A stretch of 64,000 nt of DNA from an uncultured Bacilli bacterium (GTDB lineage: Bacteria > Bacillota_I > Bacilli_A > RF39 > UBA660), in contig CALVXM010000001.1 in assembly GCA_944371305.1 (NCBI GenBank), forward strand, positions 39,600 through 103,599. Direction: 5' to 3'. A model generated the notes under the pieces. It did not search any database and was not told the origin of the DNA. It worked only from the letters and a program-made list of their open reading frames with translations. This document shows positions 4,725 through 56,965 of the stretch, piece by piece. The translations under genes and the position numbers were made by a program. Position 1 is the first letter of the stretch. The number at the start of each line of letters is the position of its first letter.

Positions 4725-5564
4725 ATGGGAAACGATATATATCAAAATGCCATGTGTAAAATTGAACAAGATCAAAAATGTAAACCTTCTTGTGTAACTT
4801 GCGTCGGAGCAACCGGACCTACTGGGCCGACCGGACCTGCTGGTCCAACTACAGTAGCAGTTGGACTTACAACTACTGGTATACCGGGTTCTAACGCTAC
4901 TGTTACCAATGCAGGAACCAATACTAATGCTATTTTCGATTTTGTTATTCCTGCCGGTGCGACCGGTGCAACCGGGCCGACTGGACCTACTGGACCACAA
5001 GGTATTCAAGGTATTCAGGGTATTCAAGGAATAGCGGGAGCAACTGGAACCCCTGGAGCGACTGGAGCGACTGGACCTACTGGGCCTGCCGGAGCATCTG
5101 GTGCAACTGGAGCGACTGGACCTACTGGACCAACTGGACCTAGTATTACACCAACATTTACAATAGGGACTGTTTCAACTGGAGCCCCTGGTTCTACAGC
5201 TACCGCTTCTATAACTGGTACATCTCCTAATTTCTTCTTAAATTTAACTATACCTGCTGGAGCGACTGGACCTACTGGAGTATCTGGCGCTACTGGACCT
5301 ACTGGACCTGCTGGAGCATCTGGCGCTACTGGACCTACCGGGCCTGCTGGAGCATCTGGCGCTACTGGGCCTACCGGACCTGCTGGAGCATCTGGTGCTA
5401 CTGGACCTACTGGACCTGCTGGAGCATCTGGTGCTACTGGACCAACTGGACCTGCTGGAGCATCTGGTGCTACTGGACCTACCGGACCTGCTGGAGCATC
5501 TGGTGCTACTGGACCTACCGGACCTACTGGACCAACTGGACCAACTGGACCTACCGGACCATAA
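4725..5564 (+). CDS. Collagen-like triple-helix repeat protein (Gly-X-Thr repeats); no signal peptide and no C-terminal globular domain
   Basis: Long runs of [16 protein letters not shown]; short non-collagen N-terminus with Cys cluster [10 protein letters not shown]; ends in GPTGPTGP then stop and an intrinsic terminator. Confidence 0.75.
5275..5526 (+). repeat. Tandem 36-bp repeat (about 7 near-identical units, ggagcatctggYgctactggRccWacYggRcctgct) encoding [12 protein letters not shown]
   Basis: Direct reading of sequence; units differ only at synonymous third positions; explains spurious antisense ORFs 4686-5027 and 5244-5579. Confidence 0.85.
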
Positions 5565-12443: not shown

Positions 12444-13433
12444 TTATATCCATACCCCCCATAAAATAGCGATAGCAGCTAAAACGATACCAAAAAACCA
12501 AAACATTTTAACGATATCTAATTCATGCCATCCTAATTTTTCAAAATGATGATGTAGTGGTGTCATCAAAAATATTCGCTTACCAGTAAATCTCACCGAC
12601 AATCTTTGTAATACACATACCAATGTTTCAACAACAAATACACCAGCTACAATAATTAAAGTTAATTCGTGGCTTGATACAATTGAAACAGCTGCTAAAG
12701 TCCCCCCTAAAGCAAGTGATCCTGTATCACCCATAAATACTTTAGCAGGATATGTATTAAAGAAACAGAAAGCTATTAAAGCTCCTACTAATATAAAACA
12801 AAATACACCAATATCTTCATTTCCTTGAATACCAAGTGAGGCCCATGCTATCATACCAAAAGCTAAGAAAGCTATTGCCGATAAACCACCAGCTAAACCA
12901 TCTAAACCATCAGTTAAATTAACTGCATTAGTAGAAGCAACCAGCATTAATAATATCAATATCCAATAAAACCACCCAAGATTAATAGTTATGCCTAAAG
13001 TATATATCTCTAAAACTGGATCTCTACCACCCTTCATAAATAAAATGAAGAAAACCACCGCAATAAGTATTTGACCGATTAGTTTTTGAAATTCACTCAA
13101 TCCAATATTATTATGTCGTTTAATAATCAAATAATCATCGATAAATCCAAGTAAGGCATAAGCTAGAAAAACAAAAATAACAGTTCCTAAATTATAAGTC
13201 ATTTCTAACTTATTCATCAACAATAATATCACAACTGATAAAATAGTCGGAATAATAAATATTAATCCACCCATAGTTGGTGTACCATCTTTTTCTTTAT
13301 GTTTTGATAAGAAAACACTCACACTTTGTTTAATATTCATCTTTTTTAGTAATGGTATTAACACAACACCAAAAATAATCGATAAAATAAATCCTATCAT
13401 GAACGCTAATACAGCCTTTGCTAAAATTAACAC
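12444..13433 (-). CDS. mraY: Phospho-N-acetylmuramoyl-pentapeptide transferase
   Basis: 10-TM protein, NAVNLTDGLDGLA signature, HHHFE motif (PLHHHFEKLGW). Confidence 0.9.
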   Translation of the reverse strand: MLILAKAVLAFMIGFILSIIFGVVLIPLLKKMNIKQSVSVFLSKHKEKDGTPTMGGLIFIIPTILSVVILLLMNKLEMTYNLGTVIFVFLAYALLGFIDDYLIIKRHNNIGLSEFQKLIGQILIAVVFFILFMKGGRDPVLEIYTLGITINLGWFYWILILLMLVASTNAVNLTDGLDGLAGGLSAIAFLAFGMIAWASLGIQGNEDIGVFCFILVGALIAFCFFNTYPAKVFMGDTGSLALGGTLAAVSIVSSHELTLIIVAGVFVVETLVCVLQRLSVRFTGKRIFLMTPLHHHFEKLGWHELDIVKMFWFFGIVLAAIAILWGVWI

Positions 13434-13451: not shown

Positions 13452-14774
13452 TTATATATTTTCTAGTACTATTTTTTTATCATCAAAATCATATTTTATA
13501 TTATTAATAATTTGATAAGTCTCATGACCTTTTCCCAACACCAATAGTATATCATTAAAAGATAACATTTGTATACCCTTTATAATCGCTTTTTCTCTAT
13601 TTAAAATAATTTCATAATTAAACTTGTCAAGATTATGTAACATATCACTGATGATATTATTCGGATTTTCACTTCTTGGATTATCATTAGTAAATATAAC
13701 ATAATCGCTATTAGAACAAGCTATATCACTCATAATCGGTCTTTTAAAACTGTCTCGATCTCCCCCACATCCGATAATCGTTATAATATGATTAGGATTT
13801 AATTCCTTAACTGCTTTAATAACATTCAAAACAGCATCTGGAGTATGAGCATAATCAATAATAATTAAATTACTATCTTTTTTTATGATATCCATTCTTC
13901 CAGGTGGACAAACTAATTGTTCTATAACACTAGTATCTAAATTTAATTCACTTAATAAAGCTATTACGACTAATATATTATATAAATTATGTTTCCCAAT
14001 TAATTTAGTTTTATAACTAATATCGTTGACTTTAAAAGAACTTCCTTCCAAATTAATTACATAATCAGTTAGTTTATAATCACCGGATCCGATTCCATAA
14101 GTAATACTATTGTCTTTAATAAAATAATCTTTATATAAATCATCAATGTTGACAAAAGTTTTATCAGTTACATTTTCAAATAATACCTGTTTAGCTTTAA
14201 TATAATTATCGAAAGATTTATGATAATCCAAATGATCTTCAGTTAAATTAGAAAAAATACCATATTTAAATTTTAATTTATCTAGTCTTTTCATATCCAA
14301 GGCATGGCTACTACATTCCATCACCACATATTCGATATTATTTTCTACACATGTTAATAATAATTCATAGATCTCTAGAATATCTGGAGTAGTATTGGAT
14401 AAATCTTTAATTTTTTCATCTAAATAAAAACCAATTGTTCCAATATAAGCACATTTAATTCCCAGTTTATTTAAAGCCTGATAAATTAAAAAACAAGTTG
14501 TCGTTTTACCATTAGTACCAGTCATTCCAATCAATTTTAAATTTTTAATTTGATCATAATAATTATCATATAAATAATTAACTAAATAATTATGTGTATC
14601 TTCAGTCACAATTGTTTCAACATCATAATTACCTTCTTCAACTATCACTTTACTAGCGCCATTTTTAATAGCATCTAAAATGTAATCATGACCATCATGT
14701 GTTTTTTTTAATGCCACAAATATATCACCTTTCACAACTTTTCGTGAATCGTCTTTTATATTCAAATTAATCAC
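13452..14774 (-). CDS. murE: Mur ligase, MurE type (UDP-MurNAc-L-Ala-D-Glu--diamino acid ligase), canonical DNPR motif
   Basis: P-loop GMTGTNGKTTT; MurE-specific IFTNDNPRSENP near C-terminus; upstream of mraY. Confidence 0.85.
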   Translation of the reverse strand: MINLNIKDDSRKVVKGDIFVALKKTHDGHDYILDAIKNGASKVIVEEGNYDVETIVTEDTHNYLVNYLYDNYYDQIKNLKLIGMTGTNGKTTTCFLIYQALNKLGIKCAYIGTIGFYLDEKIKDLSNTTPDILEIYELLLTCVENNIEYVVMECSSHALDMKRLDKLKFKYGIFSNLTEDHLDYHKSFDNYIKAKQVLFENVTDKTFVNIDDLYKDYFIKDNSITYGIGSGDYKLTDYVINLEGSSFKVNDISYKTKLIGKHNLYNILVVIALLSELNLDTSVIEQLVCPPGRMDIIKKDSNLIIIDYAHTPDAVLNVIKAVKELNPNHIITIIGCGGDRDSFKRPIMSDIACSNSDYVIFTNDNPRSENPNNIISDMLHNLDKFNYEIILNREKAIIKGIQMLSFNDILLVLGKGHETYQIINNIKYDFDDKKIVLENI

Positions 14775-14831
14775 CCATTATATTTTATTCAAATGGTTAA
14801 AAAATGTGGTAAAATATAGTTGGTGAAGATA

Positions 14832-16586
14832 ATGAAAAAAATTATTTTGTTATTAATTTTAATTTTTCCTTTTAAAATTACTGCTTTAGAACAAGCTGTT
14901 GTCGATATTAATGAATTAAATATTTATGAACTACAAGAATATGTCGACAAAGGATATTTAACTTATGAAAAAATCGTTAAACTATATTTAGATCGAATCA
15001 ACGAATATAATGAACAATATAACGCTTTAATCACAGTTAACGAAAATGCTTTAGAAGAGGCTAAAAAGTTAGATTTAGAATATCAAGAGAAAGGTAGACG
15101 TAGTCTAATTCATGGGCTACCAGTTATTGTAAAAGATAACATCGATGTTAAGGGATTACCTACTACTAATGGCGCTAAAGGATTGCTAGATGCCTATCCC
15201 AATGAAAATGCTGATGTCGTTCAAAAATTAATCGATAACGGCGCTATTATTATTGCCAAAGCTAATATGGATGAATTTGCTTTCAACGCTACTTATTCTC
15301 ATAGTAGTTTTGGCGATGTTTATAACGCTTATAATACTGCTTATTCATCTTATGGGTCTTCTGGGGGAAGTGCTGTTAGTGTAGCAAGTAATTTAGCCGT
15401 TTTTGCTTTAGGAACCGATACAGGAAGTTCAGTTAGAGTCCCAAGTAGTGCTAATGGTGTTGTTGGAATTAGACCTAGTTTTGATATTATGAGTGGTAAA
15501 GGTGTAATTAAATTTGAAGAAACAAGAGATGTTGTCGGTGTTATAACCAAATATGTTAGCGATAATGCCATTGTTTTAAACATTATCGATGAAGTCGATA
15601 TTAATTATGAACAATATTTAAATAAGCCACTAGATGGAATCAAGATAGCAGTCATCAAAGGATTTATGAATCCTAATACCAACAGTACTAGTGTGGCTTA
15701 TGGAAAAACTGACCAATTTATCTATGACATGATGAATGATGCTATTGAAGATTTAGAAAATTTGGGTGTTGAAATTATTTATCTAGATAATTTTTATTTA
15801 AATTATCAATTTGATGCCACAACAATGTGTTACAATTTTAATGAACATATAAAAAATACTTCTAGTAAAATTAGAAGTTTAGATGATTTAATTAAAAATG
15901 GTGGTTATACGCAATATATCGAAGGTTATAATGGTTATTATTGTAATCATGATTACAAATTAACAAACACTTATAAAAACTATATCAATAATCGTAATAA
16001 TAATATCAAAACTGCCAATAATAGATTTGAAAGTAATGATATTGATGCGATCATCTACCCTACTTTAAAAACAGAATTATATACTATCGAAGAAGCCAAA
16101 TATAAAAAAATTCACACTCCAAGTTCAGACACAGCACCTTTAATTGGATTCCCTGCTATGAGTATTTTAATTGGATACTATAATAATTTACCTTATGGTA
16201 TGGAAATAATGGCTCAAGCTAATAATGAAAAAGTTATTTATCAAATTGCTAGTGCTTATGAAAAATTGCACAATTATTATAAAACTCCTAGTATCGCTCC
16301 TAGTCTTTATGAAATACCTGATAATACTAATAAATTATTAGAATATTACGATAAATATAAAGACAATAAAAAATATGAAGAAATCAATAGTAAAGTTAAA
16401 AACTATTTAATTAATTTTGATGGTAATAGTGATAATATTAATAATTTAATTAACAAATATGAGGAAGAATTAGTAACCCCTGATATCAACAATGAAGATA
16501 ACATCAAAAACCAAAATTATAACTATATTATTATTTTACTAGGAGTATTGGTAGCTGTTATTATTATTAAGAAGGTGAGAAAATGA
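14832..16586 (+). CDS. Amidase-signature (AS) family amidase with N-terminal signal peptide and C-terminal TM anchor (predicted extracytoplasmic); start at ATG 14832 (ORF track uses upstream TTG)
   Basis: Signal-like N-terminus MKKIILLLILIFPFKITA; AS core GSSGGSAVSVA and GTDTGSSVRVP; C-terminal hydrophobic YIIILLGVLVAVIIIKKVRK. Confidence 0.75.
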   Translation: MKKIILLLILIFPFKITALEQAVVDINELNIYELQEYVDKGYLTYEKIVKLYLDRINEYNEQYNALITVNENALEEAKKLDLEYQEKGRRSLIHGLPVIVKDNIDVKGLPTTNGAKGLLDAYPNENADVVQKLIDNGAIIIAKANMDEFAFNATYSHSSFGDVYNAYNTAYSSYGSSGGSAVSVASNLAVFALGTDTGSSVRVPSSANGVVGIRPSFDIMSGKGVIKFEETRDVVGVITKYVSDNAIVLNIIDEVDINYEQYLNKPLDGIKIAVIKGFMNPNTNSTSVAYGKTDQFIYDMMNDAIEDLENLGVEIIYLDNFYLNYQFDATTMCYNFNEHIKNTSSKIRSLDDLIKNGGYTQYIEGYNGYYCNHDYKLTNTYKNYINNRNNNIKTANNRFESNDIDAIIYPTLKTELYTIEEAKYKKIHTPSSDTAPLIGFPAMSILIGYYNNLPYGMEIMAQANNEKVIYQIASAYEKLHNYYKTPSIAPSLYEIPDNTNKLLEYYDKYKDNKKYEEINSKVKNYLINFDGNSDNINNLINKYEEELVTPDINNEDNIKNQNYNYIIILLGVLVAVIIIKKVRK

Positions 16587-17995
16587 AATTAAATCAATTA
16601 ATCGATTGTCCTTATGATACTCTAATAACCGGCATTAAAACTAACTCGGTTAATATTCAAAAAGGAGATTTATTTATTTGTATCGATAGTAAGACAATGG
16701 ATCGTCATCTATTTATCGATGACGCTATTAAAAAAGGGGCAGCAGCCATTATCGTCAAAAATGATGTCAAAGAAAAATCTGTACCAATTATTAAAGTAGA
16801 TGACCCTAATGAAGTATTTGTCGATATTATCAATAAATTTTATAATTACCCTACTGATAAATTACAAATGATAGGAATAACTGGTACCGATGGTAAAACC
16901 ACAGTAGCTACAATTATTTATCAGTTGATAGATAATTGTGCCTATATTGGTACTAATGGTATTTTTTATAATAATCACAAAGAAAAGACAAACAATACTA
17001 CCCCCGCTTTAGATAAAACTTATCCCCTTTTCGTTGATATGATTAATAATAATATTAAAACCGTCAGTATGGAAGTATCTAGTGAAGCTATTTTATATGA
17101 ACGGGTTAGAGGCATAAAATTTAATTGTGCAATTTTGACTAATATTACAAAAGAACATTTAAATACTCATAAAACTTTAGAAAACTATATTAATTGCAAA
17201 TGTCAATTGTTTGAAAATACCATTGGACCTTGTATTTTAAATAAAGATGATGAACATTACTTAGAAGTAGCTAAACATTGTAATAAAACAGTATATACCT
17301 ATGGCAGTAAAGAAGATAACGATTTATATTTTAAAGATGTAATTTTGAAACATAATCAAACTATTTTTAAACTAGTTTATCAAAATAAAGAATATGAAAT
17401 TATTAGTCCTTTAATTGCTTTATTTAATGTCTATAATTTATGTGCTAGTATTTTAGCGTTAGTATCATTGGGTTACGATATTGATAAGATTATTAAAAAT
17501 ATTCCTAAATTAAATATTAGTGGACGACTTGAAAATATTGATTTAGGCCAAGATTTTAAAGTTATTGTCGATTATGCCCATACCCCTAATGGAATAGCTA
17601 AATTATTAGAATTTATCAATAGTTTAGACTTTAATCGTTTGATTGTCGTCTTTTCTGAACCCGGAGAAAGGGATAAATCAAAACGTGCTATTAAAGGTTA
17701 TAATGTCATTACTAATTGTGATTATGCAATTATAACTAGTCAAGATCCTAGAAGTGAAAATCCAATGGATATAGCTAATGATCTAATTAGTGATGTTAAA
17801 AATTATCAAAATTATGAAATTATTTTAAACCGTAGTGACGCTATTAAAAAAGCTATCGATATGGCTAAATCAAATGATATTGTTTTAATTCTTGGTAAAG
17901 GAAGTGAAAACTATCAAATTTTAAGTGATAAAATTATTGAATTTTGTGATATTGATGAAGTTAAAAAACATTTAAAAAATCTACTTTCAAAGTAG
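16583..17995 (+). CDS. Second Mur ligase, MurE-like paralogue with variant QDPR motif (candidate for adding a non-canonical residue to the peptide stem)
   Basis: P-loop GITGTDGKTTVA; C-terminal IITSQDPRSENP in place of DNPR; 470 aa; translationally coupled (4-nt overlap) to the amidase. Confidence 0.8.
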   Translation: MKLNQLIDCPYDTLITGIKTNSVNIQKGDLFICIDSKTMDRHLFIDDAIKKGAAAIIVKNDVKEKSVPIIKVDDPNEVFVDIINKFYNYPTDKLQMIGITGTDGKTTVATIIYQLIDNCAYIGTNGIFYNNHKEKTNNTTPALDKTYPLFVDMINNNIKTVSMEVSSEAILYERVRGIKFNCAILTNITKEHLNTHKTLENYINCKCQLFENTIGPCILNKDDEHYLEVAKHCNKTVYTYGSKEDNDLYFKDVILKHNQTIFKLVYQNKEYEIISPLIALFNVYNLCASILALVSLGYDIDKIIKNIPKLNISGRLENIDLGQDFKVIVDYAHTPNGIAKLLEFINSLDFNRLIVVFSEPGERDKSKRAIKGYNVITNCDYAIITSQDPRSENPMDIANDLISDVKNYQNYEIILNRSDAIKKAIDMAKSNDIVLILGKGSENYQILSDKIIEFCDIDEVKKHLKNLLSK

Positions 17996-18011: not shown

Positions 18012-18815
18012 TTATTTTTTTATATAAGTCTTTTCTTCATCTTTTTTTAATTCTTCTGAAATATCCAAATCATAAATAGAATCACATATTTTATAGTAAT
18101 AAAATTGATTTAAAGAAGTATAATCTCTTTTTTTCATAGCTTTCATTAAAGCATCTTTATATTCAGCTCGCTCTTTTGTTTTAACATAAACAGGCGGTAA
18201 ATTATATTGTTTAAACATCAAATTTAATAAAGCTCTAAATGTTCTTTTATTTCCATCATTAAACGGTTGTACTCTAATTAATTCGGTAGTAACATAAATA
18301 CAAGCATTAATATAATCAAATATCGAATAAGGATCATTAAAATCAACTTTAGGTAAATCTTTACCAATGAATGATTGAAAATAACTTCTCGCTTCTTCAT
18401 AATTAGGAACTTCGATAATTTCATTTTTTAAAACAGCAGAACCATCTCTTAACTTTCCCCCAAACTCTGGATAAGGACATTCAGAAAATAATAACATATG
18501 AATTTTCATTGCTTCGATGAATATATCAAATTTTTGTTTACTAAAGTCATAACTTTTGATATATTCATAAGCTTTAGCTAGGCCTTTTCTCTCCTCTTCT
18601 AAAAGAGTTTGATCGATTCGACTTTCATTATATAAATAATATCTTTTAAAATTATCGTAAATTATTTTAAAATGTGGTTTTTGATTAGATTTATAATACA
18701 TCGTAATAATTTGTTCTGGAATTAAACTATCTTTTTTATACAAACGATGTTCTTCTTTTCTTTTTCGATAACCTTCAAATACTAAAACAATAAAATCTCT
18801 TAATTCATTTTCCAT
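18012..18815 (-). CDS. Fic/Doc-family protein with non-canonical motif QPFNDGNKR (Doc-like HxFxD(A/G)NKR signature but with Gln replacing the catalytic His)
   Basis: Sequence IRVQPFNDGNKRTFRALLNLMF at residues about 180-200 of 267; no adjacent Phd-like antitoxin ORF. Confidence 0.55.
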   Translation of the reverse strand: MENELRDFIVLVFEGYRKRKEEHRLYKKDSLIPEQIITMYYKSNQKPHFKIIYDNFKRYYLYNESRIDQTLLEEERKGLAKAYEYIKSYDFSKQKFDIFIEAMKIHMLLFSECPYPEFGGKLRDGSAVLKNEIIEVPNYEEARSYFQSFIGKDLPKVDFNDPYSIFDYINACIYVTTELIRVQPFNDGNKRTFRALLNLMFKQYNLPPVYVKTKERAEYKDALMKAMKKRDYTSLNQFYYYKICDSIYDLDISEELKKDEEKTYIKK

Positions 18816-18850: not shown

Positions 18851-18885
18851 AAATTAAAACGTTTGTCAAATTGACAAACGTATCA
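18851..18885 (-). terminator. Intrinsic terminator downstream of the membrane-Mur ligase gene
   Basis: Hairpin aacgtttgtcaaattgacaaacgt with flanking T-rich run on the minus strand. Confidence 0.6.
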
Positions 18886-20478
18886 TTATTTTTCATTAAA
18901 CACATCTGGTAAATCGTTTTCTAATAAAATATAAGTTTCTTGATTATTAAAATATGTTTGAGCTATTTTGATAGCTTCTTTAACATCATTTAAAACCAGC
19001 AATTTCTTATTATCAAAGCCAGCTTCGATAATTCCTTTTTGAATTGGTTTAGTTTGTTCAGATCCTACTAAAATGGCTAAATCAACAGAAGTAGCAATAA
19101 ATTTACCAAAATTATAATTAACTTCGTATTGCTTATCACCCATTTCAATCATCCCCGGTGTGATAACAATTTTTTTACCTGGCATCAATTTCAAAACATC
19201 TAAAGCCATTTTAGAACCGATTGGATTTGAATTATAAGCATCATCAATATAAGTTAGATGACCATATTTTTTAATTTGCAGACGATGTTCAATCGGTTTA
19301 ATTTGATTAACTCCTCTTTGCAATTCATTGATATTTAATCCTAATTCATACCCAACGGCAATACCAGCCAAAATATTATAAACATTCGCATCCCCTAATA
19401 ATTTGGTATTAAATTCATAAGATTTTTTATCACCTTTAAAGTGAACTTTAAAATTCATGCCACTACTAGAATATTTAATGTCACTAGCGTAGACATCAGC
19501 TTTATCGCTTAATCCATACCAAACTATTTTTATTTTATTTTTTAAATTGTATTTAACTTGTAATTCATCATCAATATTTAAAAAACCAACTCCATTTGGT
19601 GGTAAACTTTCGATAAGTTCAAATTTAGCTTGTGTCGTATTGGCAATAGATCCGAATGTATCTAAATGAGCTGTCCCTATTTTAGTTAAAACACCATATT
19701 TAGGTTTTACTATACTAGCTCGTGATTTAATATCCCCTTTTCTAAATGCCCCTAATTCAGCGATAAAATAATCGTTATATTTATCAATATATTCGTTAAT
19801 AGTTCTAATTAAACCATAATTGGTATTAAAATTTTGCGGAGTTGGAAAGGCGATGTATTTTATATTTAAGATATCATTAATAATATTTTTAGTACTAGTT
19901 TTACCATAACTACCTGTAACGCCAATAACTTCCATGTTATTTAAAGTTTTTAACTTTTTCATAGCCTTACTTTTATAATATAAATATACTAATTTTTCAA
20001 CTGGTTTATTGATAATATTAACTAGGTAAACAATATGATAGTTAAAATAAATTAAACTACCTAAAATAAAATAATATAAAAATAAATTAGACTCATTGAA
20101 TGTTAAAAATATCAAGATAAGAGGAATACTATATAAAATTAAAGTAGTGATACACATTCTTTTAATTCTACTAGTAAAAGCAAGTGGTTTTTTTACCTGT
20201 TCATTTCGATATTTATTTAATAATACATATGATAAAAGGAAATAATATACTGTTATAATGACACTAAGTAAATTATTATCGATAAAAATACCAAGAATAA
20301 CAATGAATAAATATAGATAATCTAACCAAGTAAAAATAAAAGAAGCATTATTATTGATCCATTTTAAATAACGATTACCATCATTGTACCAATTTTGTTG
20401 AAGCATATGAAAAGCTTTTTTTAAATCAATGATAGTATAAACTAACATACTTAGTAAAGCCAAAAGAAATAAATTCAT
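18886..20478 (-). CDS. Mur ligase family protein (MurF-like C-terminal DDAYNSNP motif) with an unusual N-terminal polytopic membrane domain of about 170 aa
   Basis: About 5 predicted TM helices in residues 1-170; P-loop GVTGSYGKTSTKNII; DDAYNSNPIGS motif; 530 aa. Confidence 0.7.
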   Translation of the reverse strand: MNLFLLALLSMLVYTIIDLKKAFHMLQQNWYNDGNRYLKWINNNASFIFTWLDYLYLFIVILGIFIDNNLLSVIITVYYFLLSYVLLNKYRNEQVKKPLAFTSRIKRMCITTLILYSIPLILIFLTFNESNLFLYYFILGSLIYFNYHIVYLVNIINKPVEKLVYLYYKSKAMKKLKTLNNMEVIGVTGSYGKTSTKNIINDILNIKYIAFPTPQNFNTNYGLIRTINEYIDKYNDYFIAELGAFRKGDIKSRASIVKPKYGVLTKIGTAHLDTFGSIANTTQAKFELIESLPPNGVGFLNIDDELQVKYNLKNKIKIVWYGLSDKADVYASDIKYSSSGMNFKVHFKGDKKSYEFNTKLLGDANVYNILAGIAVGYELGLNINELQRGVNQIKPIEHRLQIKKYGHLTYIDDAYNSNPIGSKMALDVLKLMPGKKIVITPGMIEMGDKQYEVNYNFGKFIATSVDLAILVGSEQTKPIQKGIIEAGFDNKKLLVLNDVKEAIKIAQTYFNNQETYILLENDLPDVFNEK

Positions 20479-20523
20479 AACCTTTCCTCCTAATTAATAT
20501 TATTTGAAGTTTTAAAATTATTA

Positions 20524-30604: not shown

Positions 30605-32062
30605 TTATAAGAACATCATCGCTAACGTTAAAATAAGAATATTGACAACTGCAATCGTAACGACAATCTTTAAAGCAAATTTTACCCAAGTTGCATATTC
30701 TACTTTAGCTACTGCAAGTCCACCCATAATAGCGCCACAAGTTGGTGTAATTAAGTTAACTAAACCGTTAGCAGCAACTATAGTCATAACAGTTCCTTCA
30801 ACACTATATCCTAATTGATAAGCAACTGGTCCTACGATAGGTGCTGATAAAGTAGCCAAACCAGAACTAGATGGAACTAAAATAGATAATAGAACATGAA
30901 TAACATAGTTAAATGGTGCGAATATGATAACTGGAACATTTTTAAGCATCTCAGCAGCATTATAAATTATGTAATTATCTAAATATGTGCTTTGCATTAA
31001 AACTGAAGCTCCACGAGCAATAGCGATAATTAAGATTACTCCAACCATATCGTCAGCGCCATCGATAAATGTATCAACAAATTTTTTCTCTCCAGTTCTA
31101 TTAACAAAACCAATAATAACTGACATAATTAAAAACCACAAAGCTGCTTCATAGAAATACCACTGTCCTAAAGGCATTCCTGTTAACCAACCAGTAAATT
31201 TAGGAAATATATCAATACCAAATTCTTCCCAAGGAATAAATCCAACAATCATCACAACAAATGTCAAAGCAAATAAACATAAAGTAATTTTTTGTTTTTT
31301 GGATAATTTAACATTATCTAATTCAGTATTAACATGACTTCCGTATTCTTCTTCCGCATTTTTTCTTTCTCTTAACGATAAGAAAGTTGAACCTTTTTTC
31401 TTAATAACTCTTTTAGCATAAGCCATTACAAATAAAATAGAAATCAATAAAGTTGTCAGCCATAAAGCTACACCTATACCAATTATAAGTCCTTGATTAA
31501 CAGCAATTCCTTCAGGCAAGGCGCTAACTGCTGCTCCTACCGCAAATGGATTAATAGTTGATCCTAAAACACCTGAACCTGCTCCTAATAAAACAACTGC
31601 TGATGCTACCAAGGTATCCATACCAGCCATTACCATCGTTGCAGATAATAAAGCATAAAAACCAACAGTTTCCTCAAGCATACCATAAGTAGTACCACCA
31701 ACTGAGAAAATAAACATTAAAATTGGTATTAATATTAACTCTTTACCTTTTAGTTTTTTAACCAAAACTTTAATACCAGTTTCCAAAGCTTCAGTTCTTG
31801 CAACAATAGCTAAAAACCCGCCTAGAATAAGAACGAAAATACAAACATCAATCGCATTTTCAAATCCTAAAATAGGAGACAAAAGTACATCTGATAATGT
31901 CGCTCCTACAACACCACTACCATTGACAATTTCTTCAACGCCTTCAGCGTTAGTAACAAATTCTGCTTTAGGTAGAAAATGTGAAACAATTCCTAAAGCA
32001 AATATTAATATGAAAATTATCGAAAAAGCGGTTAGAAAACCTTTTCTTTTTTTCTTTGCCAT
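30605..32062 (-). CDS. YfcC-family membrane carrier (putative arginine/ornithine antiporter, ArcD-like by context)
   Basis: 485 aa, about 11-12 TM helices, basic N-terminus MAKKKRKGFLTAFSIIF typical of YfcC family; last gene of the arc operon. Confidence 0.65.
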   Translation of the reverse strand: MAKKKRKGFLTAFSIIFILIFALGIVSHFLPKAEFVTNAEGVEEIVNGSGVVGATLSDVLLSPILGFENAIDVCIFVLILGGFLAIVARTEALETGIKVLVKKLKGKELILIPILMFIFSVGGTTYGMLEETVGFYALLSATMVMAGMDTLVASAVVLLGAGSGVLGSTINPFAVGAAVSALPEGIAVNQGLIIGIGVALWLTTLLISILFVMAYAKRVIKKKGSTFLSLRERKNAEEEYGSHVNTELDNVKLSKKQKITLCLFALTFVVMIVGFIPWEEFGIDIFPKFTGWLTGMPLGQWYFYEAALWFLIMSVIIGFVNRTGEKKFVDTFIDGADDMVGVILIIAIARGASVLMQSTYLDNYIIYNAAEMLKNVPVIIFAPFNYVIHVLLSILVPSSSGLATLSAPIVGPVAYQLGYSVEGTVMTIVAANGLVNLITPTCGAIMGGLAVAKVEYATWVKFALKIVVTIAVVNILILTLAMMFL

Positions 32063-32063
32063 A

Positions 32064-33005
32064 TTATTCTCCCTTTCTAACGATTACTGTGCCAGTTTTA
32101 CCTAACAAAGCATCCTTGATTTTACCTAATGAGGTAATAATTGCTTGTCCATCTTTTTTATGTGATACATAATCTATACATGCTTCTATCTTAGGAAGCA
32201 TACTGCCTGCTTTAAATTCATCATTCTTCATATATTCTTTTGCTTGTTTAACTGTTAAAAAGTCTAATTTTTGTTCGTTTTCCTTATTAAAATTAATCGC
32301 TACTTTTTCGACAGCTGTCAATATTAAGAAAATATCAGCGTTCAGATCAATCGCTAGTTTCGCGCTAGTTTTATCTTTATCAATAACCGCATCAACTCCA
32401 ACTAGGCTATTACGTTTTTTAATAACTGGTATGCCTCCACCACCTGCTGCTATAATTACATTATGTTTATTGCTTAAGTCCCTAATAACCTTACCCTCAA
32501 CTACCTTTAATGGATTAGGACTAGCAATAACTCTACGGTAACCTCTTCCAGCATCTTCTTTAAATACAAAACCTTTTTCTTTAGTTAATTCATCTGCTTC
32601 TTTTTTTGTATAAAAGTTGCCAATTGGTTTAGTTGGATTAGAAAAAGCTTCATCTTTACTATCAACTAAAACTTGAGTTATAACAGTAATACAATTTTTA
32701 CGCATATTTCGTCTAAATAACTCTTTTTGAATTGATTGCTGCAAATGATATCCAATATATCCTTGACTCATGGCGCCACATTCAGCAAATGGCATATCAG
32801 GAGTATCGATTTCTTCATGTGCTACTTCCATTGCTAAGTTGATCATACCCACTTGAGGTCCATTACCATGAGTTACAACAATATCGTAACCATCTTCGAT
32901 AATATCAACAATATTTTTAGCGGTACTCTTGATTAAATTTAATTGTTCACTAGGGGTATTACCTAAAGCATTACCCCCTAGTGCAATGACGATTTTTCTT
33001 TTCAT
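32064..33005 (-). CDS. arcC: Carbamate kinase
   Basis: N-terminal [11 protein letters not shown], amino-acid kinase fold, 313 aa. Confidence 0.9.
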
Positions 33006-33991
33006 TTATATAAAGTCGCGAACATAATAGCTTTAATGGTATGTAATCTATTTTCAGCTTCCTCAAAAACTCTTGACTGTTTTGATTCAAAAACTTCATT
33101 AGTTACTTCCATTTCTGTCAAACCAAATTTTTCATGAATTTCTTGACCAATCGTTGTTTTTAAATCATGGAATGATGGTAAGCAGTGTAGAAATATTGCA
33201 TTTGGATTAGCAATACTCATTAGTTCTTTGTTTACTTGGTAAGGTTTTAATAGATTAATTCTTTCCTCCCAAATACTTGCATCTTCACCCATTGAAACCC
33301 ACACATCAGTATATAATACATCAGCATTTTTAACAGCTTCTTTAGGATCTTCAATAAATTCAATTGTCGAATTATATTTTTTAGCAAACTCTTCACATTG
33401 TTTTACTAATGGTTCTTCAGGTACTAATTGTTTTGGACTACAACAAACAAAGTTAATTCCCAATTTAGAACAAATAACCATTAAAGAATTAGCGACATTA
33501 TTTCTGCCATCACCTAAGAAAACTAATTTTTTACCTCTAATTTCACCAAATTCTTCTTTAACAGTCATAATATCTGCTAACATTTGAGTTGGATGAAATT
33601 CATTAGTTAAACCATTCCAAACTGGAACTTTAGAATACTTGGCTAATTCTTCGACGATTTCCTGATCAAAACCACGATATTCAATGCCATCATACATTCT
33701 CGATAAAACACGAGCCGTATCTTCGATACTTTCTTTTTTGCCCATCTGTGAACCAGTTGGTCCTAAGTAAGTAGCTCCCATACCTAAATCATAAGCTCCA
33801 ACTTCAAAAGCACATCTTGTTCTAGTTGAATCCTTTTCAAAAAGTAAAACAACATTTTTACCTCTTAAATAAGCATGTGATTTTTTATTTTTTTTCTTCT
33901 CTTTGAAAAGAATAGCAAGTTTAATTAAATAAGTAATTTCTTCTGGTGTGTAATCGATTAGTTTTAAAAAATCACGACCATAAAAATTCAT
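33002..33991 (-). CDS. arcB: Ornithine carbamoyltransferase (catabolic)
   Basis: STRTR carbamoyl-phosphate motif, HPTQ, HCLP motifs; 329 aa. Confidence 0.9.
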
Positions 33992-33992
33992 T

Positions 33993-35234
33993 TTACATCT
34001 CCCTTTCTAATGGCATACTCATACATCTTGGTCCACCACGTCCTCTTGATAATTCAGCACTTGGCATTTCCAAAACTTTAATACCATGATTTCTTAATAC
34101 TTCATTTGTTTCATTATTTCGATCATAGACAACAACAACTCCAGGAGCAATACATAAAGTGTTTGAGCCATCATTCCATTGTTCACGTTCAGAAGCAATC
34201 TTATCGCCTCCCGCACAAGGAATAAGTGTTATTTGACGACCTAAATAATGTGACAAAATATTTTCCAACGAATCATTAATCTCTTTAACATTCAAATCTT
34301 CATCACTATCAGGTACATCGCCTTCAGTTATTTCAAACACTTGAAGAGTTTCCATAATTCCAGGATGATATGTAAATTTATCGTAATCTATTTGTGTAAA
34401 TACGGTGTCTAAGTGCATGAAAGCACGACTATTAGGAATGTTAAAAGCCAATATTGTATCAATCTTACAATCCTTATCTTTAAATAAATTTTTAGCAATT
34501 TGATCAATAGCTTCAGGACAAGTTCTTTGTGAATAACCAATAGCTAAGATATGTTCATTCAAATTTAGAACATCACCGCCTTCAATATGATGAGGAAGAT
34601 AGCGATCATAGTAAAGAGTCAATTGATCTTTATATTCTGGATGATATTCAAAAATATATTCGGCATAGATTGTCTCTCTATTTCTTGTAACTGAATACAT
34701 CTTATTTAAAGAAACACCATGCCCAATACTAGCAAAAGGATCTCTTGTAAAATATAAGTTAGGCATTGGTTTAGCCAAAAATTTTGATTCTTCACTAACT
34801 AAATCAACTAATGATTTTTCAATTTCTCTTTTTTCCCGATCTAATTCACCAATTTGAATTCCTTCCATTGTTTTTAAAACTAGTTCTTTAGGATCCTCAA
34901 TATTATTTAGATATTCATATACTAAATTCTTATATTTAGGAGTCCTAATTCCTGCTTCATAGATAAATTGTTTTAAGAACTTTTCTTTAATACCAGGATT
35001 AAACATTAAAACCTCAGCCATCAAATCTTCCAAATATACTACTTCGATACCGTTTTCCTTTAAAAGATTTGCAAAATAATCATGTTCTTTTTGTGCCACT
35101 GGTAGATAAGGAATATCATCAAATAATAACTCAGATAATGTATCAGGTGTTAAATTTAATAATTCTTTACCAGGGCGATGCAATAAAACTTTTTTTAATT
35201 TTTTAATTTCACTATCAACTTTAATAGCATACAT
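33993..35234 (-). CDS. arcA: Arginine deiminase
   Basis: 413 aa; C-terminal catalytic region [15 protein letters not shown] (Cys nucleophile). Confidence 0.9.
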
Positions 35235-38971: not shown

Positions 38972-41900
38972 TTATCCAATTTTTAAAAATTTTGTATCGA
39001 CAATTGAATATAAATATAGATTAATTACTTTATTAGTTTTAGTTGTGACAAATTCTTTATAGCCATTTAATTGTTTTAAATATTTATCATCCTCAACATT
39101 TTTTAATTTATAATCGATTATATCAATATGATCATCGTACTCTAACATAAGATCGATAATTCCGTGATATTTTGTATCATCCTTAATATACATAAATTCA
39201 TATTCTTTATATATTTTAGCATATTTAATATTCTTTAAAACATCACTTTTTAAAAAATTATTAATTTTTTCTTGATAAAATTTATTTTCTAAATTTATTT
39301 CTTGATTAAAATCTAAATTTTCTAATAATTCGTGAAAATATGTTCCAAATTCTAATATCTTTTTCTTATCTTTAGTAATTACTTCATTTATTTTTTTAGA
39401 AAAACTATTTTCTTTTATTTCTTCGTTAGGAATATTAATATTTTCGACTTTTAATTCTTTAAATTCTGAAATATCATAATTATTTTCTTTGATCAAGTTA
39501 TAATCTTTAGTTAAATTAGGAATTTCTACTTTAATTAAATATTTTTCTAATCTATTTTTAACTGAATTAATAATATCTAAAAAACTACGATATTGTTCTT
39601 TAAGATTATTTTTTAATACTAATTCATTATTAAAGCTATTTATGTCACTATATGGTATAACCATTATCATTTTTTCTTTGGCTCTTGTTAGTGCCACATA
39701 AAATAACCTTATTTTTTCTGATATTTCTTCTTTTATATAATCATCTTTAATTAGTGTTTTATAAATAGTATTGCCGATACCTTCATCAAAATATGGTGTG
39801 ATTATACCATATTTATTACTATATAAAAACTTTTCATTCAACTCACTAATATTAAAACTTTTATATAAATTAGCAAAATAACAAATATGATATTCTAAAC
39901 CTTTTGACTTGTGAATTGTCATTATTTTAACGGCATCGCCTAAATCATTATTGATTTGATATTTTATCTGATAATTTTCCCTAATCATCTTGTCTAAATG
40001 GTTAGAAAATAAAACAATATCATAATCAATTAAATTATTTGCCATCTCAATTATCTCGTCAATTTTAATTAAACTCGCTTCAATATTACCAATAGTAATT
40101 AATTTTTCATAAAAATTAAACTTCTTTAAAATCTCATTAATTATATAAGAAGGACTAAAATCTAAAGATATCTCTTGAGCTTTTTTAAATAAATCACTAT
40201 CATAATAATTTTTATTTAAAAAATATTTAAAAATGATATCGTCTTTTTCATTATAAATAAAACTTCGCATAATACTTATAAATAAATATCTAAAATCACT
40301 ATCATATTCTTTATTTTTAACTTTTATCACAAATTTAATTAAATTATTTAAAACATAAATATCTTGATCATTGTTCATCTTTTCTTCTTTTAAAATATTT
40401 AAAGGTATTTTATGATATTCAAATATTTTTTTAAATAAATCAAAATTACTAGAGCGATCCAATAAAATAACAAAATCACTATAACGAACATTTCTTAATA
40501 TTAATTCATCCTTGTCAAATATTTGATAATTATTATCGATTTTATTTTTTATATCACGAGCAATTAAAAAACACTCTACTTCATCTTTACTAAAATTATT
40601 ATTGTCTTTTTCATATTCTAGTATCTCAAGATTATAATCTTGCTTAGTTGCTCCTTCATTGATATAAGAGTCATTACCAAATATCATTTGGTGTGTCTTT
40701 AAATAATCTGCTCCTCCAATATCATCATTCATAATTAAATTAAAAATTAAATTAATATCATCTAAAACTTCTTTTCTTGAACGAAAATTTTTATTTAAAT
40801 CGATTTTAATTCCACCAATTTTTTGGGAATAATTATCATACTTATTTTTAAAAATATTTGGGTTCGCATTTCTAAAGCGATAAATTGATTGCTTAATATC
40901 TCCAACCATATAAACATTATTAGAAGAAATATATTTAATAAATTCTTCTTGTAAATCGTTGGTATCTTGGTATTCATCGATCATAATTTCTTTAAAATTG
41001 TTTTTTAATTCTAAAGCGACATTATCATTTTCTTTAACTATTTTAATTGCAAGCAATGCAATATCATTAAATTCATATAAATCATTTTGTCTTTTATAAA
41101 AATTAATTTTTTTAGTTAATTCTAAAATAATATCAATTATAACTTTAACATAATCTTCAGTTTTTAAAATTGTCTCTTTTATCTTATCGACGCTATCATA
41201 ATTACATAATTCATTAATAGATTTAATTTTTTTATTGAGTTTATCTTTAATTTTTTTAGCCTCATCTAAAGAACCACGCGGTAAAGGTGGTAATTTTAAA
41301 ATAGAATTGTTTTTTATATCAAGATAAATTTCACTATTTAAAAGCGCATTTATTACTTCATATAATTTATTTAAATATTCACTATCCACATAATTACTTA
41401 ATTCACCTATTATATCTTCAAGTGATAAAATTTGCTTTTTAATATAAATTAAATAAGAATTTATATCTTTATCAATATCACTAAATTGATAGTTTTCTAA
41501 ATAAGCAATTTTATCGATTAACATATCTAATTTATCATTTATAGTTAAAATTTGTTTTCTAATTTCTTTATCATCTTTAACACAAAAATCATTAATTAAT
41601 TTTTTAAAATTAGTGTCATTTTGATATTTATTTTCAAATATTTCATCTAAAAACTCTTCTTTTTTTATTTTAACAACTGATTCCTCAATAATATTTACAT
41701 CTTTTGCTATATTAATTAAATAATGATATTTCTTAACAACCGATAAAGCAAAACTATCGAAAGTTGTAATATAAGCTGCATCAATCATATCTAATTCTTG
41801 AACTAGATTTTCTTTTTTGATTTTTTTTCTAATTCGTTCTTTCATTTCACTAGCTGCAGCTTTAGTGAAAGTTAAAATAAGTAATTCGTTAATATGAATA

Positions 41901-42055
41901 CCTTGTTTTAATTTATCGATAACACGTTCACTTAAAACCGCTGTCTTACCGCTTCCTGCACCCGCACTGACAATAATATTTGTCCCACTTTTATAAATCG
42001 CATCATTTTGTTCTTTAGTCCACACTGGCATTATCATCACCTCCAATATCGACAA
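38972..42055 (-). CDS. addA: ATP-dependent helicase/nuclease subunit A (AddA/RexA, UvrD-like helicase plus RecB nuclease)
   Basis: Walker A AGAGSGKT, UvrD helicase motifs, C-terminal nuclease GIIDLMLE...IIDYKL. Confidence 0.85.
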   Translation of the reverse strand: MSILEVMIMPVWTKEQNDAIYKSGTNIIVSAGAGSGKTAVLSERVIDKLKQGIHINELLILTFTKAAASEMKERIRKKIKKENLVQELDMIDAAYITTFDSFALSVVKKYHYLINIAKDVNIIEESVVKIKKEEFLDEIFENKYQNDTNFKKLINDFCVKDDKEIRKQILTINDKLDMLIDKIAYLENYQFSDIDKDINSYLIYIKKQILSLEDIIGELSNYVDSEYLNKLYEVINALLNSEIYLDIKNNSILKLPPLPRGSLDEAKKIKDKLNKKIKSINELCNYDSVDKIKETILKTEDYVKVIIDIILELTKKINFYKRQNDLYEFNDIALLAIKIVKENDNVALELKNNFKEIMIDEYQDTNDLQEEFIKYISSNNVYMVGDIKQSIYRFRNANPNIFKNKYDNYSQKIGGIKIDLNKNFRSRKEVLDDINLIFNLIMNDDIGGADYLKTHQMIFGNDSYINEGATKQDYNLEILEYEKDNNNFSKDEVECFLIARDIKNKIDNNYQIFDKDELILRNVRYSDFVILLDRSSNFDLFKKIFEYHKIPLNILKEEKMNNDQDIYVLNNLIKFVIKVKNKEYDSDFRYLFISIMRSFIYNEKDDIIFKYFLNKNYYDSDLFKKAQEISLDFSPSYIINEILKKFNFYEKLITIGNIEASLIKIDEIIEMANNLIDYDIVLFSNHLDKMIRENYQIKYQINNDLGDAVKIMTIHKSKGLEYHICYFANLYKSFNISELNEKFLYSNKYGIITPYFDEGIGNTIYKTLIKDDYIKEEISEKIRLFYVALTRAKEKMIMVIPYSDINSFNNELVLKNNLKEQYRSFLDIINSVKNRLEKYLIKVEIPNLTKDYNLIKENNYDISEFKELKVENINIPNEEIKENSFSKKINEVITKDKKKILEFGTYFHELLENLDFNQEINLENKFYQEKINNFLKSDVLKNIKYAKIYKEYEFMYIKDDTKYHGIIDLMLEYDDHIDIIDYKLKNVEDDKYLKQLNGYKEFVTTKTNKVINLYLYSIVDTKFLKIG

Positions 42056-46925: not shown

Positions 46926-50034
<3,109 letters not shown>

Positions 50035-50602: not shown

Positions 50603-50677
50603 TGGAGCAAGTGAGCGGAATCGAACCGCCGTCCCAGCCTTGGCAAGGCCGTATACTAACCGCTGTACTACACCTGC
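50603..50677 (-). tRNA. tRNA-Gly (anticodon GCC), CCA encoded
   Basis: RC folds as cloverleaf: acceptor gcaggtg/cacttgc, anticodon stem cggcc/ggctg, loop ttGCCaa, T-loop ttcgatt, 3' tCCA; 75 nt. Confidence 0.9.
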
Positions 50678-56689: not shown

Positions 56690-56739
56690 ATCATCACCTC
56701 AATTATATAACATATTATAACATATTTTAGAATAAAAAA

Positions 56740-56915
56740 AAAGTCCAAGAATGCGGGCCCTTAACGATAAAACCTAGTCTCTACCAGGTGGGCATCACAT
56801 CATCAATTTTAGGATTCTCAAAATTAATTGAGCCTTCAACACCATCGATGAATTAGATTCCCAATATTCGTTAATCAGTCGGTTTTTCTAAATGAGCTTA
56901 TCGCTATCCTTAGAC
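56740..56915 (-). ncRNA. Candidate small/structured RNA or tkt 5' leader (about 175 nt, GC-rich island, extended -10 TGgTATAAT at 56922-56930, 3' T9)
   Basis: Local GC far above flanks (gggcccgc, cccacctgg); no ORF; family not identified; no clean terminator hairpin found. Confidence 0.2.
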
Positions 56916-56965
56916 AATTATATTATACCATAAATTATTAAAAATATCATAATTTTAAATATTTT

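Follow-up and report, generated by a model that had tools for sequence, protein, structure and literature searches.

The locus described here raises the question of what a Mur ligase does at the membrane. In the window, i.e. the whole stretch of 64,000 nucleotides that was analysed, from an uncultured bacterium of the Bacilli, one gene encodes a protein in which hydrophobic helices precede a Mur-ligase core (hereafter TM-MurF; Table 1). The usual account of MurF, an essential enzyme and a much-studied target for antibiotics, is of a soluble, cytoplasmic protein of three domains. A first reading of this DNA, made from the letters alone (the sequence-only reading), had called membrane tethering of such an enzyme unusual, and rightly so: none of the characterised MurC-F enzymes is integrated into a membrane, and reviews call them cytoplasmic. 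Full-text literature searches gave no description of a membrane-bound MurF or of its membrane domain, and no mention of TM-MurF was found in the passages on MurF, Mur ligases or ddl of a 2025 paper on the Mur proteins of Erysipelotrichales.

The two motifs that had drawn attention to the gene, a P-loop and a MurF-like DDAYNSNP, are found at residues 186–197 (GVTGSYGKTSTK) and 412–419 respectively. Pfam recognises the middle domain (Mur_ligase_M, PF08245, residues 187–375, 145 bits for a cut-off of 24) and the C-terminal domain (Mur_ligase_C, PF02875, residues 398–508, 37.3 bits for a cut-off of 28.4). In an alignment of 43 sequences, down to 36% identity, the core positions G189, K193, T194, E241, H271, N301, D303, N365, N368, H398, R399, D412, N416 and N418 are invariant. 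By its middle domain, C-terminal domain and catalytic residues TM-MurF is a member of the Mur-ligase superfamily. Judged by sequence and predicted fold, it is nearer to MurF than to MurC, MurD, MurE or Mpl. The best NCBIfam model is murF (TIGR01143, 218.8 bits), while MurE models score at most 106 bits; the PDB sequence search gave 9e-35 for MurF versus 2e-16 for MurE; and the ten top Foldseek matches in the PDB are all MurF, ahead of MurE, MurC and MurT (4QF5, E 1e-25; rmsd of the MurF matches 2.4–2.8 Å over ~360 columns).

The murF score is nevertheless below the cut-off of 288.6, and the alignment spans just positions 69–392 of the 418 of the profile. Thus domain 1 is absent. PF01225, the Pfam model of this domain, has no match in TM-MurF, and the PDB and HMM alignments begin at TM-MurF residue ~177–183, which corresponds to chain residues 100–120, past domain 1. 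Domain 1 of Mur ligases binds UDP; the three domains of E. coli MurF comprise residues 1–81, 92–310 and 311–447 (PMC12844806). The five-helix membrane domain therefore stands in the place of the UDP-binding domain of MurF; it is not added onto a complete enzyme. The core had been described as complete, which holds for the middle and C-terminal domains and the catalytic motifs but not for domain 1.

Table 1. Position of TM-MurF, its parts and the neighbouring precursor-synthesis genes in the window
Feature	Position	Strand	Basis
TM-MurF gene, 530 aa: 5-TM domain + MurF-type ligase core	18886..20478	-	ORF; homologues; AlphaFold pLDDT 88.6
N-terminal membrane domain, aa 1-180, 5 TM helices, N-out/C-in (predicted)	19939..20478	-	hydropathy, positive-inside pattern, invariant columns, model pLDDT 93, dN/dS
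MurF-type ligase core, aa 181-530: ATP-binding middle + C-terminal domains	18886..19938	-	Pfam, NCBIfam murF best, PDB sequence/fold matches, invariants
Shine-Dalgarno AGGAGG, ATG (20478) 7 nt 3' of motif	20486..20491	-	sequence reading
Perfect palindrome, 23 bp, directly past TM-MurF stop codon	18859..18881	.	sequence reading
MurE paralogue 2	16583..17995	+	TIGR01085 408.6 bits
MurE paralogue 1, directly upstream of mraY	13452..14774	-	TIGR01085 431.6 bits, cut-off 257.3
MraY	12444..13433	-	Glycos_transf_4 + MraY_sig1

The topology of the membrane domain was predicted from a 19-residue hydropathy scan and the distribution of charges. Five TM helices lie at about 3–19, 47–66, 70–88, 108–127 and 131–152. 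Lys and Arg are confined to three loops (4, 7 and 7 in loops 20–46, 89–107 and 153–185), with zero in the other loops and the N-terminus; by this pattern the protein starts outside the cell and has its ligase on the cytoplasmic side. AlphaFold models agree with the prediction. For the full-length protein (AlphaFold2, 43-sequence alignment) the pLDDT is 88.6 and the pTM 0.77, and the membrane domain by itself reaches 93.0 and 0.85. In the full-length model TM5 is prolonged as a single helix (146–178) into the first strand of the ligase.

The conservation of this domain sits in its three basic cytoplasmic loops and not in its helices: the mean column identity is 0.57–0.61 in the loops versus 0.32–0.38 in the helices. 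The loops carry the motifs HMLQQNxY..RY..W (24–40), KKPLxxTxRxKR (96–107) and NxINxPxE (154–161). In the same 43 sequences positions Q27, Y31, R36, T102, R104, R107, P159 and E161 are invariant, and W40 nearly so; each of them belongs to a cytoplasmic loop or to the inner end of TM5. Residues 1–180 match no family of Pfam-A, and a PDB fold search with the domain gave no significant, consistent match and no resemblance to known polyprenyl-phosphate-binding folds.

The fusion is real, conserved and widespread, and no local oddity. Among database relatives, the 120 best all have lengths of about 520–530 aa and match the query at 56–82% identity with ~100% coverage; a search seeded with a distant member added another 120 (473–546 aa). 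Full-length homologues at 39–82% identity span 100% of the query, and every full-length relative found measures about 520–545 aa. An exhaustive search with residues 1–178 gave 374 clusters, whose full-length matches are all fusions of 518–537 aa. A stand-alone form of the membrane domain was looked for among the short matches; these stop in frameshift-like or truncated sequence and were treated as fragments. The sequence-only reading had proposed to look for the same fusion in related genomes. A scan of GTDB, with one genome per species, found a relative in at least 562 species, and in full-length relatives the two parts are always fused.

The carriers are almost all uncultured Bacilli, mostly, among the matches listed, gut Bacilli and Erysipelotrichaceae MAGs. 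They are labelled Tenericutes, Mycoplasmatota, Erysipelotrichaceae, Acholeplasma sp. CAG:878, Firmicutes CAG:822, Candidatus Coprovivens, Coprosoma or Faecisoma, and one is a complete chromosome of 1.49 Mb. Named carriers include Turicibacter, Anaerorhabdus and Culicoidibacterales and, surprisingly, three alkaliphilic Bacillaceae (Pseudalkalibacillus sp. SCS-8, Alkalihalobacillus sp. AL-G and Alkalicoccus luteus). In the databases the relatives are named “MurF” or “Mur ligase family protein”.

To place the family we built a neighbour-joining tree on 347 core columns with the canonical MurFs of Bacillus, Anoxybacillus, Limosilactobacillus and E. coli. The TM-MurF cores are monophyletic (100/100 bootstraps) and fall outside the clade formed by the four canonical enzymes (99/100). 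Their identity to canonical MurF is 26–29%, while the Anoxybacillus and E. coli enzymes share 34%. The separate clade and the low identity make TM-MurF a distinct and divergent branch of MurF. The Bacillaceae copies are nested within the TM clade, which suggests horizontal acquisition; they look acquired rather than inherited. A search for plasmid-borne TM-MurF gave only canonical MurFs, at ~30% identity. Anoxybacillus has its canonical murF in the classical ddl-murF order.

Canonical MurF (EC 6.3.2.10; PDB 1GG4, 4QF5 and 4CVM) has in common with TM-MurF the middle and C-terminal domains, the catalytic residues and the linkage to ddl, murE and mraY. The difference lies at the N-terminus, where E. 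coli MurF has domain 1 (residues 1–81) and TM-MurF has 180 residues of membrane domain instead. MurT, of the MurT/GatD lipid II amidotransferase (PDB 6FQB, 6GS2 and 7Q8E), is like TM-MurF a member of the Mur-ligase family without the UDP-binding domain, works on a membrane-bound precursor, and resembles it distantly in structure (Foldseek E about 1e-14 to 1e-15). Unlike TM-MurF, it is soluble, pairs with GatD, carries a C-terminal domain of the DUF1727 type and catalyses amidation, not the addition of a dipeptide. The MurT model NF052464 gives 37.2 bits on TM-MurF for a cut-off of 800, and Pfam reports no DUF1727, the MurT-specific domain, in it.

Fusion of the last precursor steps is known from MurE-MurF (PRK11929), MurF-alanine racemase (PRK11930) and MurC-Ddl (PRK14573), and the TM-MurF core matches the MurF halves of known Mur fusion proteins. 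These fusions, however, join soluble enzymes that keep domain 1, whereas the partner in TM-MurF is a membrane domain without known family. VanT, a membrane-bound serine racemase, shows that an enzyme of precursor supply that is normally soluble can carry a polytopic N-terminal membrane domain; this is an enzyme of another class, in which a membrane domain of a known, acyltransferase-like family is added to a complete racemase. The poly-gamma-glutamate synthetase PgsB/CapB is a membrane-anchored amide ligase of the Mur superfamily that likewise lacks domain 1. It has a single N-terminal helix and polymerises glutamate in the PgsBCA complex; families of this type are absent from the Pfam and NCBIfam matches of TM-MurF.

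The window holds the peptidoglycan genes MraY, two MurE paralogues, MltG/YceG and an SLT lytic transglycosylase, with a PASTA kinase gene just beyond its end; from this gene content its organism clearly makes peptidoglycan. The genes murE2, an amidase gene, murE1 and mraY come within 6 kb of TM-MurF. The ligase had been placed next to mraY. In the window the two genes are in fact 5.4 kb apart with four genes intervening, but the description fits relatives (loci L007, L022 and L023) in which TM-murF, murE, murE and mraY form a run; the ligases neighbouring TM-MurF there are all MurE by score. Neither a Ddl nor an alpha/beta hydrolase was found within the window, and no canonical murF in the window widened by ~10 kb at either end.

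In most relatives, by contrast with the window and its closest relatives (L001–L010), where it is broken up, TM-MurF belongs to a module: about 70 of 87 loci have the order alpha/beta hydrolase, TM-MurF, Ddl homologue. The hydrolase has ~250 aa, and in many relatives its gene abuts or overlaps the start of TM-MurF. The third member is an ATP-grasp protein of ~400 aa that passes two NCBIfam D-Ala-D-Ala ligase cut-offs (336.6 bits for 262 and 283.6 for 245.65), retains the “DKY” motif of the D-Ala-D-Ala type and ends in a basic Gly/Lys-rich tail. A Van-type resistance cassette was considered and rejected: the partner scores far under the Van-type models (VanA, VanC and VanG) and is a D-Ala-D-Ala ligase by score. 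Locus L079 has the order murE, hydrolase, TM-murF, ddl. Across relatives, the genomic association typical of MurF (ddl, murE, mraY) is present. L032 has the whole module in two tandem copies, and in Bacillaceae an M15 (VanX/DdpX-like) peptidase and a class B PBP are encoded 3' of it. Canonical MurF was also absent from the loci and flanks that were searched (about 20 kb per genome).

On these comparisons we put at about three in four the probability that TM-MurF, taken as a whole, performs the addition of D-Ala-D-Ala in peptidoglycan synthesis, and it is probably the working MurF of the small-genome Bacilli that carry it. The sequence-only interpretation is thus supported in part: both functions that it proposed, channelling of the product to MraY and action on a lipid-linked substrate, are conceivable, and the Ddl gene beside TM-MurF in most relatives adds a link to D-Ala-D-Ala that it did not have. 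The version in which this membrane-integrated enzyme still uses a UDP-linked acceptor we would rate a little short of even odds. In that version the three cytoplasmic loops would occupy the place of domain 1. As TM5 runs on as one helix into the ligase, the active-site cleft would be held against these loops, which would bind the “handle” of the acceptor, most likely the uridine diphosphate of UDP-MurNAc-tripeptide. The tripeptide would be supplied by the neighbouring MurE enzymes, and the C-terminal domain would bind D-Ala-D-Ala from Ddl, encoded adjacently in most relatives. ATP-dependent ligation would then yield UDP-MurNAc-pentapeptide at the inner face of the membrane, where MraY would take it up.

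Several results are consistent with this UDP version, i.e. the MurF-like sequence and fold of the core with its invariant catalytic residues, the adjacent Ddl and the murE and mraY neighbours in the loci named above, and a fusion that is under purifying selection and never seen divided in full-length relatives. Soluble MurF has been reported in association with MraY, MurG and MreB (PMC3187750). Release of the product beside MraY would, by analogy, be a hard-wired form of this association. Counting against the UDP version are the sub-cut-off MurF score and the loss of the UDP-binding domain, the position of the core in a fully supported clade of its own, and a window without Ddl or hydrolase. 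So do the other Mur-superfamily members without domain 1 (MurT, FolC, CapB and the M domain of cyanophycin synthetase), which to our knowledge use non-UDP substrates. In addition, the Bacillaceae context, with its adjoining peptidase and PBP, looks accessory rather than housekeeping.

The same pattern among members without domain 1, MurT with its activity on lipid II included, favours a lipid-linked acceptor, the main rival, which we consider rather unlikely. MraY would first move MurNAc-tripeptide to undecaprenyl phosphate, and TM-MurF would extend lipid I- or lipid II-tripeptide with D-Ala-D-Ala; its conserved arginine loops would bind undecaprenyl pyrophosphate, and what counts as the last “cytoplasmic” step would, in this clade, take place at the membrane. 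A polytopic membrane domain in place of a UDP-binding one fits such a substrate, and five helices far exceed the needs of a simple anchor. Three invariant arginines are among the conserved residues, which do lie where membrane and cytoplasm meet; but recognition of uracil would be served just as well by the conserved Gln/Asn/Tyr/Trp motif, and the TM helices are poorly conserved, as one would not expect of a lipid-binding groove. The basic tail of the partner Ddl could bring it to the membrane. Against this, the membrane domain is unlike any known polyprenyl-phosphate-binding fold, and MraY prefers a pentapeptide substrate.

An extended form of this proposal concerns a large Bacilli clade next to the wall-less Mollicutes (RF39-like gut lineages, Erysipelotrichales, Turicibacter and Culicoidibacterales). 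There the order of precursor synthesis would have changed, D-Ala-D-Ala being added at the membrane to an undecaprenyl-pyrophosphate-linked tripeptide by a MurF with a new lipid-carrier-binding domain that acts together with the hydrolase and a co-evolved Ddl. We regard this as doubtful.

It is also improbable that TM-MurF is an accessory paralogue, with a canonical MurF elsewhere in the genome and the hydrolase/TM-MurF/Ddl module doing a side job. This job could be the repair or re-extension of trimmed precursors, the addition of an alternative dipeptide, or the coupling of the MurF step to the status of the membrane or lipid carrier, with the membrane domain as a regulatory sensor. The deep separation of the clade from canonical MurF agrees with such a role, as do the tandem modules of L032, the hydrolase gene abutting or overlapping TM-MurF, and the Bacillaceae copies, nested in the TM clade beside a D-Ala-D-Ala dipeptidase-like M15 gene and a class B PBP. 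Yet the family is nearly ubiquitous in small genomes (about 1.5 Mb), where redundancy is rare, as its species count and the one complete chromosome illustrate. Moreover TM-MurF lies beside murE, mraY and ddl in the place that a MurF would take, and the partner keeps the motif and the scores of a Ddl.

If the D-Ala-D-Ala-adding enzyme proposed here is the sole MurF of its hosts, it would be a second solution to precursor recognition, with the long-proposed hand-over from MurF to MraY hard-wired at the membrane. A whole family has replaced the domain that binds the substrate handle by an uncharacterised membrane domain, in hundreds of Bacilli species from the gut and the environment, among them the cultivable Turicibacter, Anaerorhabdus and Alkalihalobacillus. 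Should the acceptor be lipid-linked, the line that separates cytoplasmic from membrane stages of cell-wall synthesis would need redrawing in the clade. With either acceptor, MurF inhibitors aimed at the domain 1 interface would not apply. TM-MurF also marks lineages bordering the wall-less Mollicutes and so bears on the remodelling of the cell wall and its subsequent loss.

The sequence-only reading had described a single polypeptide, hydrophobic helices and then a Mur-ligase core, and the ORF has exactly the limits that it gave. The alternative that it had itself named, an annotation artefact in which the real start is an internal Met (in this protein Met 173 or 182) and the upstream stretch is non-coding or a separate small membrane protein, is virtually ruled out: Met codons do occur shortly before the P-loop and some database entries are shortened to 453–505 aa, but the frame is uninterrupted with a consensus ribosome-binding site at its first ATG, the N-terminal motifs are invariant down to 25% identity, codons 1–180 are under purifying selection (dN/dS 0.19–0.35 against eight orthologues, versus 0.09–0.24 for the ligase codons), the short database matches look fragmentary beside the uniformly fused full-length ones, and TM5 and the linker form one unbroken helix in the AlphaFold models.

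In the window and in L001–L010 the gene is flanked upstream by a CPBP protease gene and a 165-aa HAD-like gene, and downstream by a Fic gene. The palindrome that directly follows the stop codon of TM-MurF is terminator-like and overlaps a consensus promoter of this Fic gene.

In nearly all relatives that carry TM-murF (loci L011-L086), the start of this gene, which encodes the membrane-domain MurF-type ligase, is abutted or overlapped by a gene whose product is an alpha/beta hydrolase about 250 aa long. The top family match of this hydrolase is the EstV lipase family, below threshold. No alpha/beta hydrolase of the module is found in the 64-kb window.

The Ddl proteins adjoining TM-MurF (five loci in the table) are about 400 aa long. 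Two features set them apart from a canonical Anoxybacillus Ddl, which lacks both: a Gly/Ser/Lys-rich insert immediately past the omega-loop "DKY", and a C-terminal tail that is basic and rich in Gly, Lys and Ser. The entire hydrolase, TM-MurF, Ddl module is duplicated in tandem in one relative, L032, each of its TM-MurF copies being only about 51-55% identical to the window's protein. In the relatives from alkaliphilic Bacillaceae, genes for an M15 (VanX/DdpX-like) peptidase and a class B penicillin-binding protein (PBP) come after the module, and the whole looks like an accessory cell-wall cassette. Two other relatives have a second MraY paralogue about 9 kb upstream of TM-murF, with 55-57% identity to the window's MraY.

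The window has two full-length MurE paralogues, split by an amidase gene. In relatives the murE pair is in tandem. The two MurEs may reflect two different position-3 residues, or a stem-peptide modification. The amidase-signature enzyme is probably surface-exposed, as its N-terminus is signal-like and a membrane anchor lies at its C-terminus.

The Fic-domain gene directly downstream of TM-murF is a feature of the window lineage, kept in six of its closest relatives (L001, L003-L006 and L008). A Fic gene also adjoins the module in two distant relatives, and its proximity to TM-murF may reflect coincidence or a regulatory link. The perfect palindrome preceding the window's Fic gene resembles a terminator on either strand. 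Within it lies a -35/-10 promoter for Fic with a 12/12 consensus match, so the palindrome may act as an operator.

Features of the window and of relatives carrying TM-murF
Feature	Locus	Coordinates	Strand	Remark
MurE paralogue 1	window	13452-14774	-	
Amidase-signature enzyme	window	14820-16586	+	588 aa
MurE paralogue 2	window	16583-17995	+	
Fic-domain gene	window	18012-18815	-	
Palindrome	window	18859-18881		23 bp, ACGTTTGTCAAATTGACAAACGT, between TM-murF stop codon and Fic gene
Hydrolase	L011-L086			~750 bp upstream of each TM-murF
Hydrolase, example	L081	9232-10008		
Ddl	L081	11604-12818		
Ddl	L084	12405-13616		
Ddl	L085	12946-14145		
Ddl	L028	11596-12792		
Ddl	L079	11553-12785		
Duplicated module	L032	9271-16471		
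M15 peptidase/class B PBP	L081	12976-15965		
M15 peptidase/class B PBP	L083	13048-13761; 18944-21019		
Second MraY	L005	409-1392		
Second MraY	L015	10-867		
Fic gene	L079	6382-6804		
Fic gene	L086	8386-8994		
Collagen-repeat ORF	window	4725-5564	+	
Arginine deiminase operon	window	30605-35234	-	
AddA/AddB-like pair	window	38972-44321	-	
Relaxase/recombinase region with tRNA-Gly(GCC)	window	46926-50031; 50603-50677		
6S RNA gene	window	56738-56919	-	67 bits

Elsewhere in the window, a Mob_Pre relaxase and a large serine recombinase adjoin tRNA-Gly(GCC), probably as an integrated mobilisable element. Local GC rises from about 0.26 to 0.36 at an ORF with collagen triple-helix repeats, which account for this spike; overlapping ORFs on its opposite strand are spurious. 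The most AT-rich part (GC 0.19-0.21) contains the AddA/AddB-like helicase-nuclease pair. Besides a 6S RNA gene, the window has an arginine deiminase operon that is complete, with ADI, OTC, carbamate kinase and a DcuC-type carrier.
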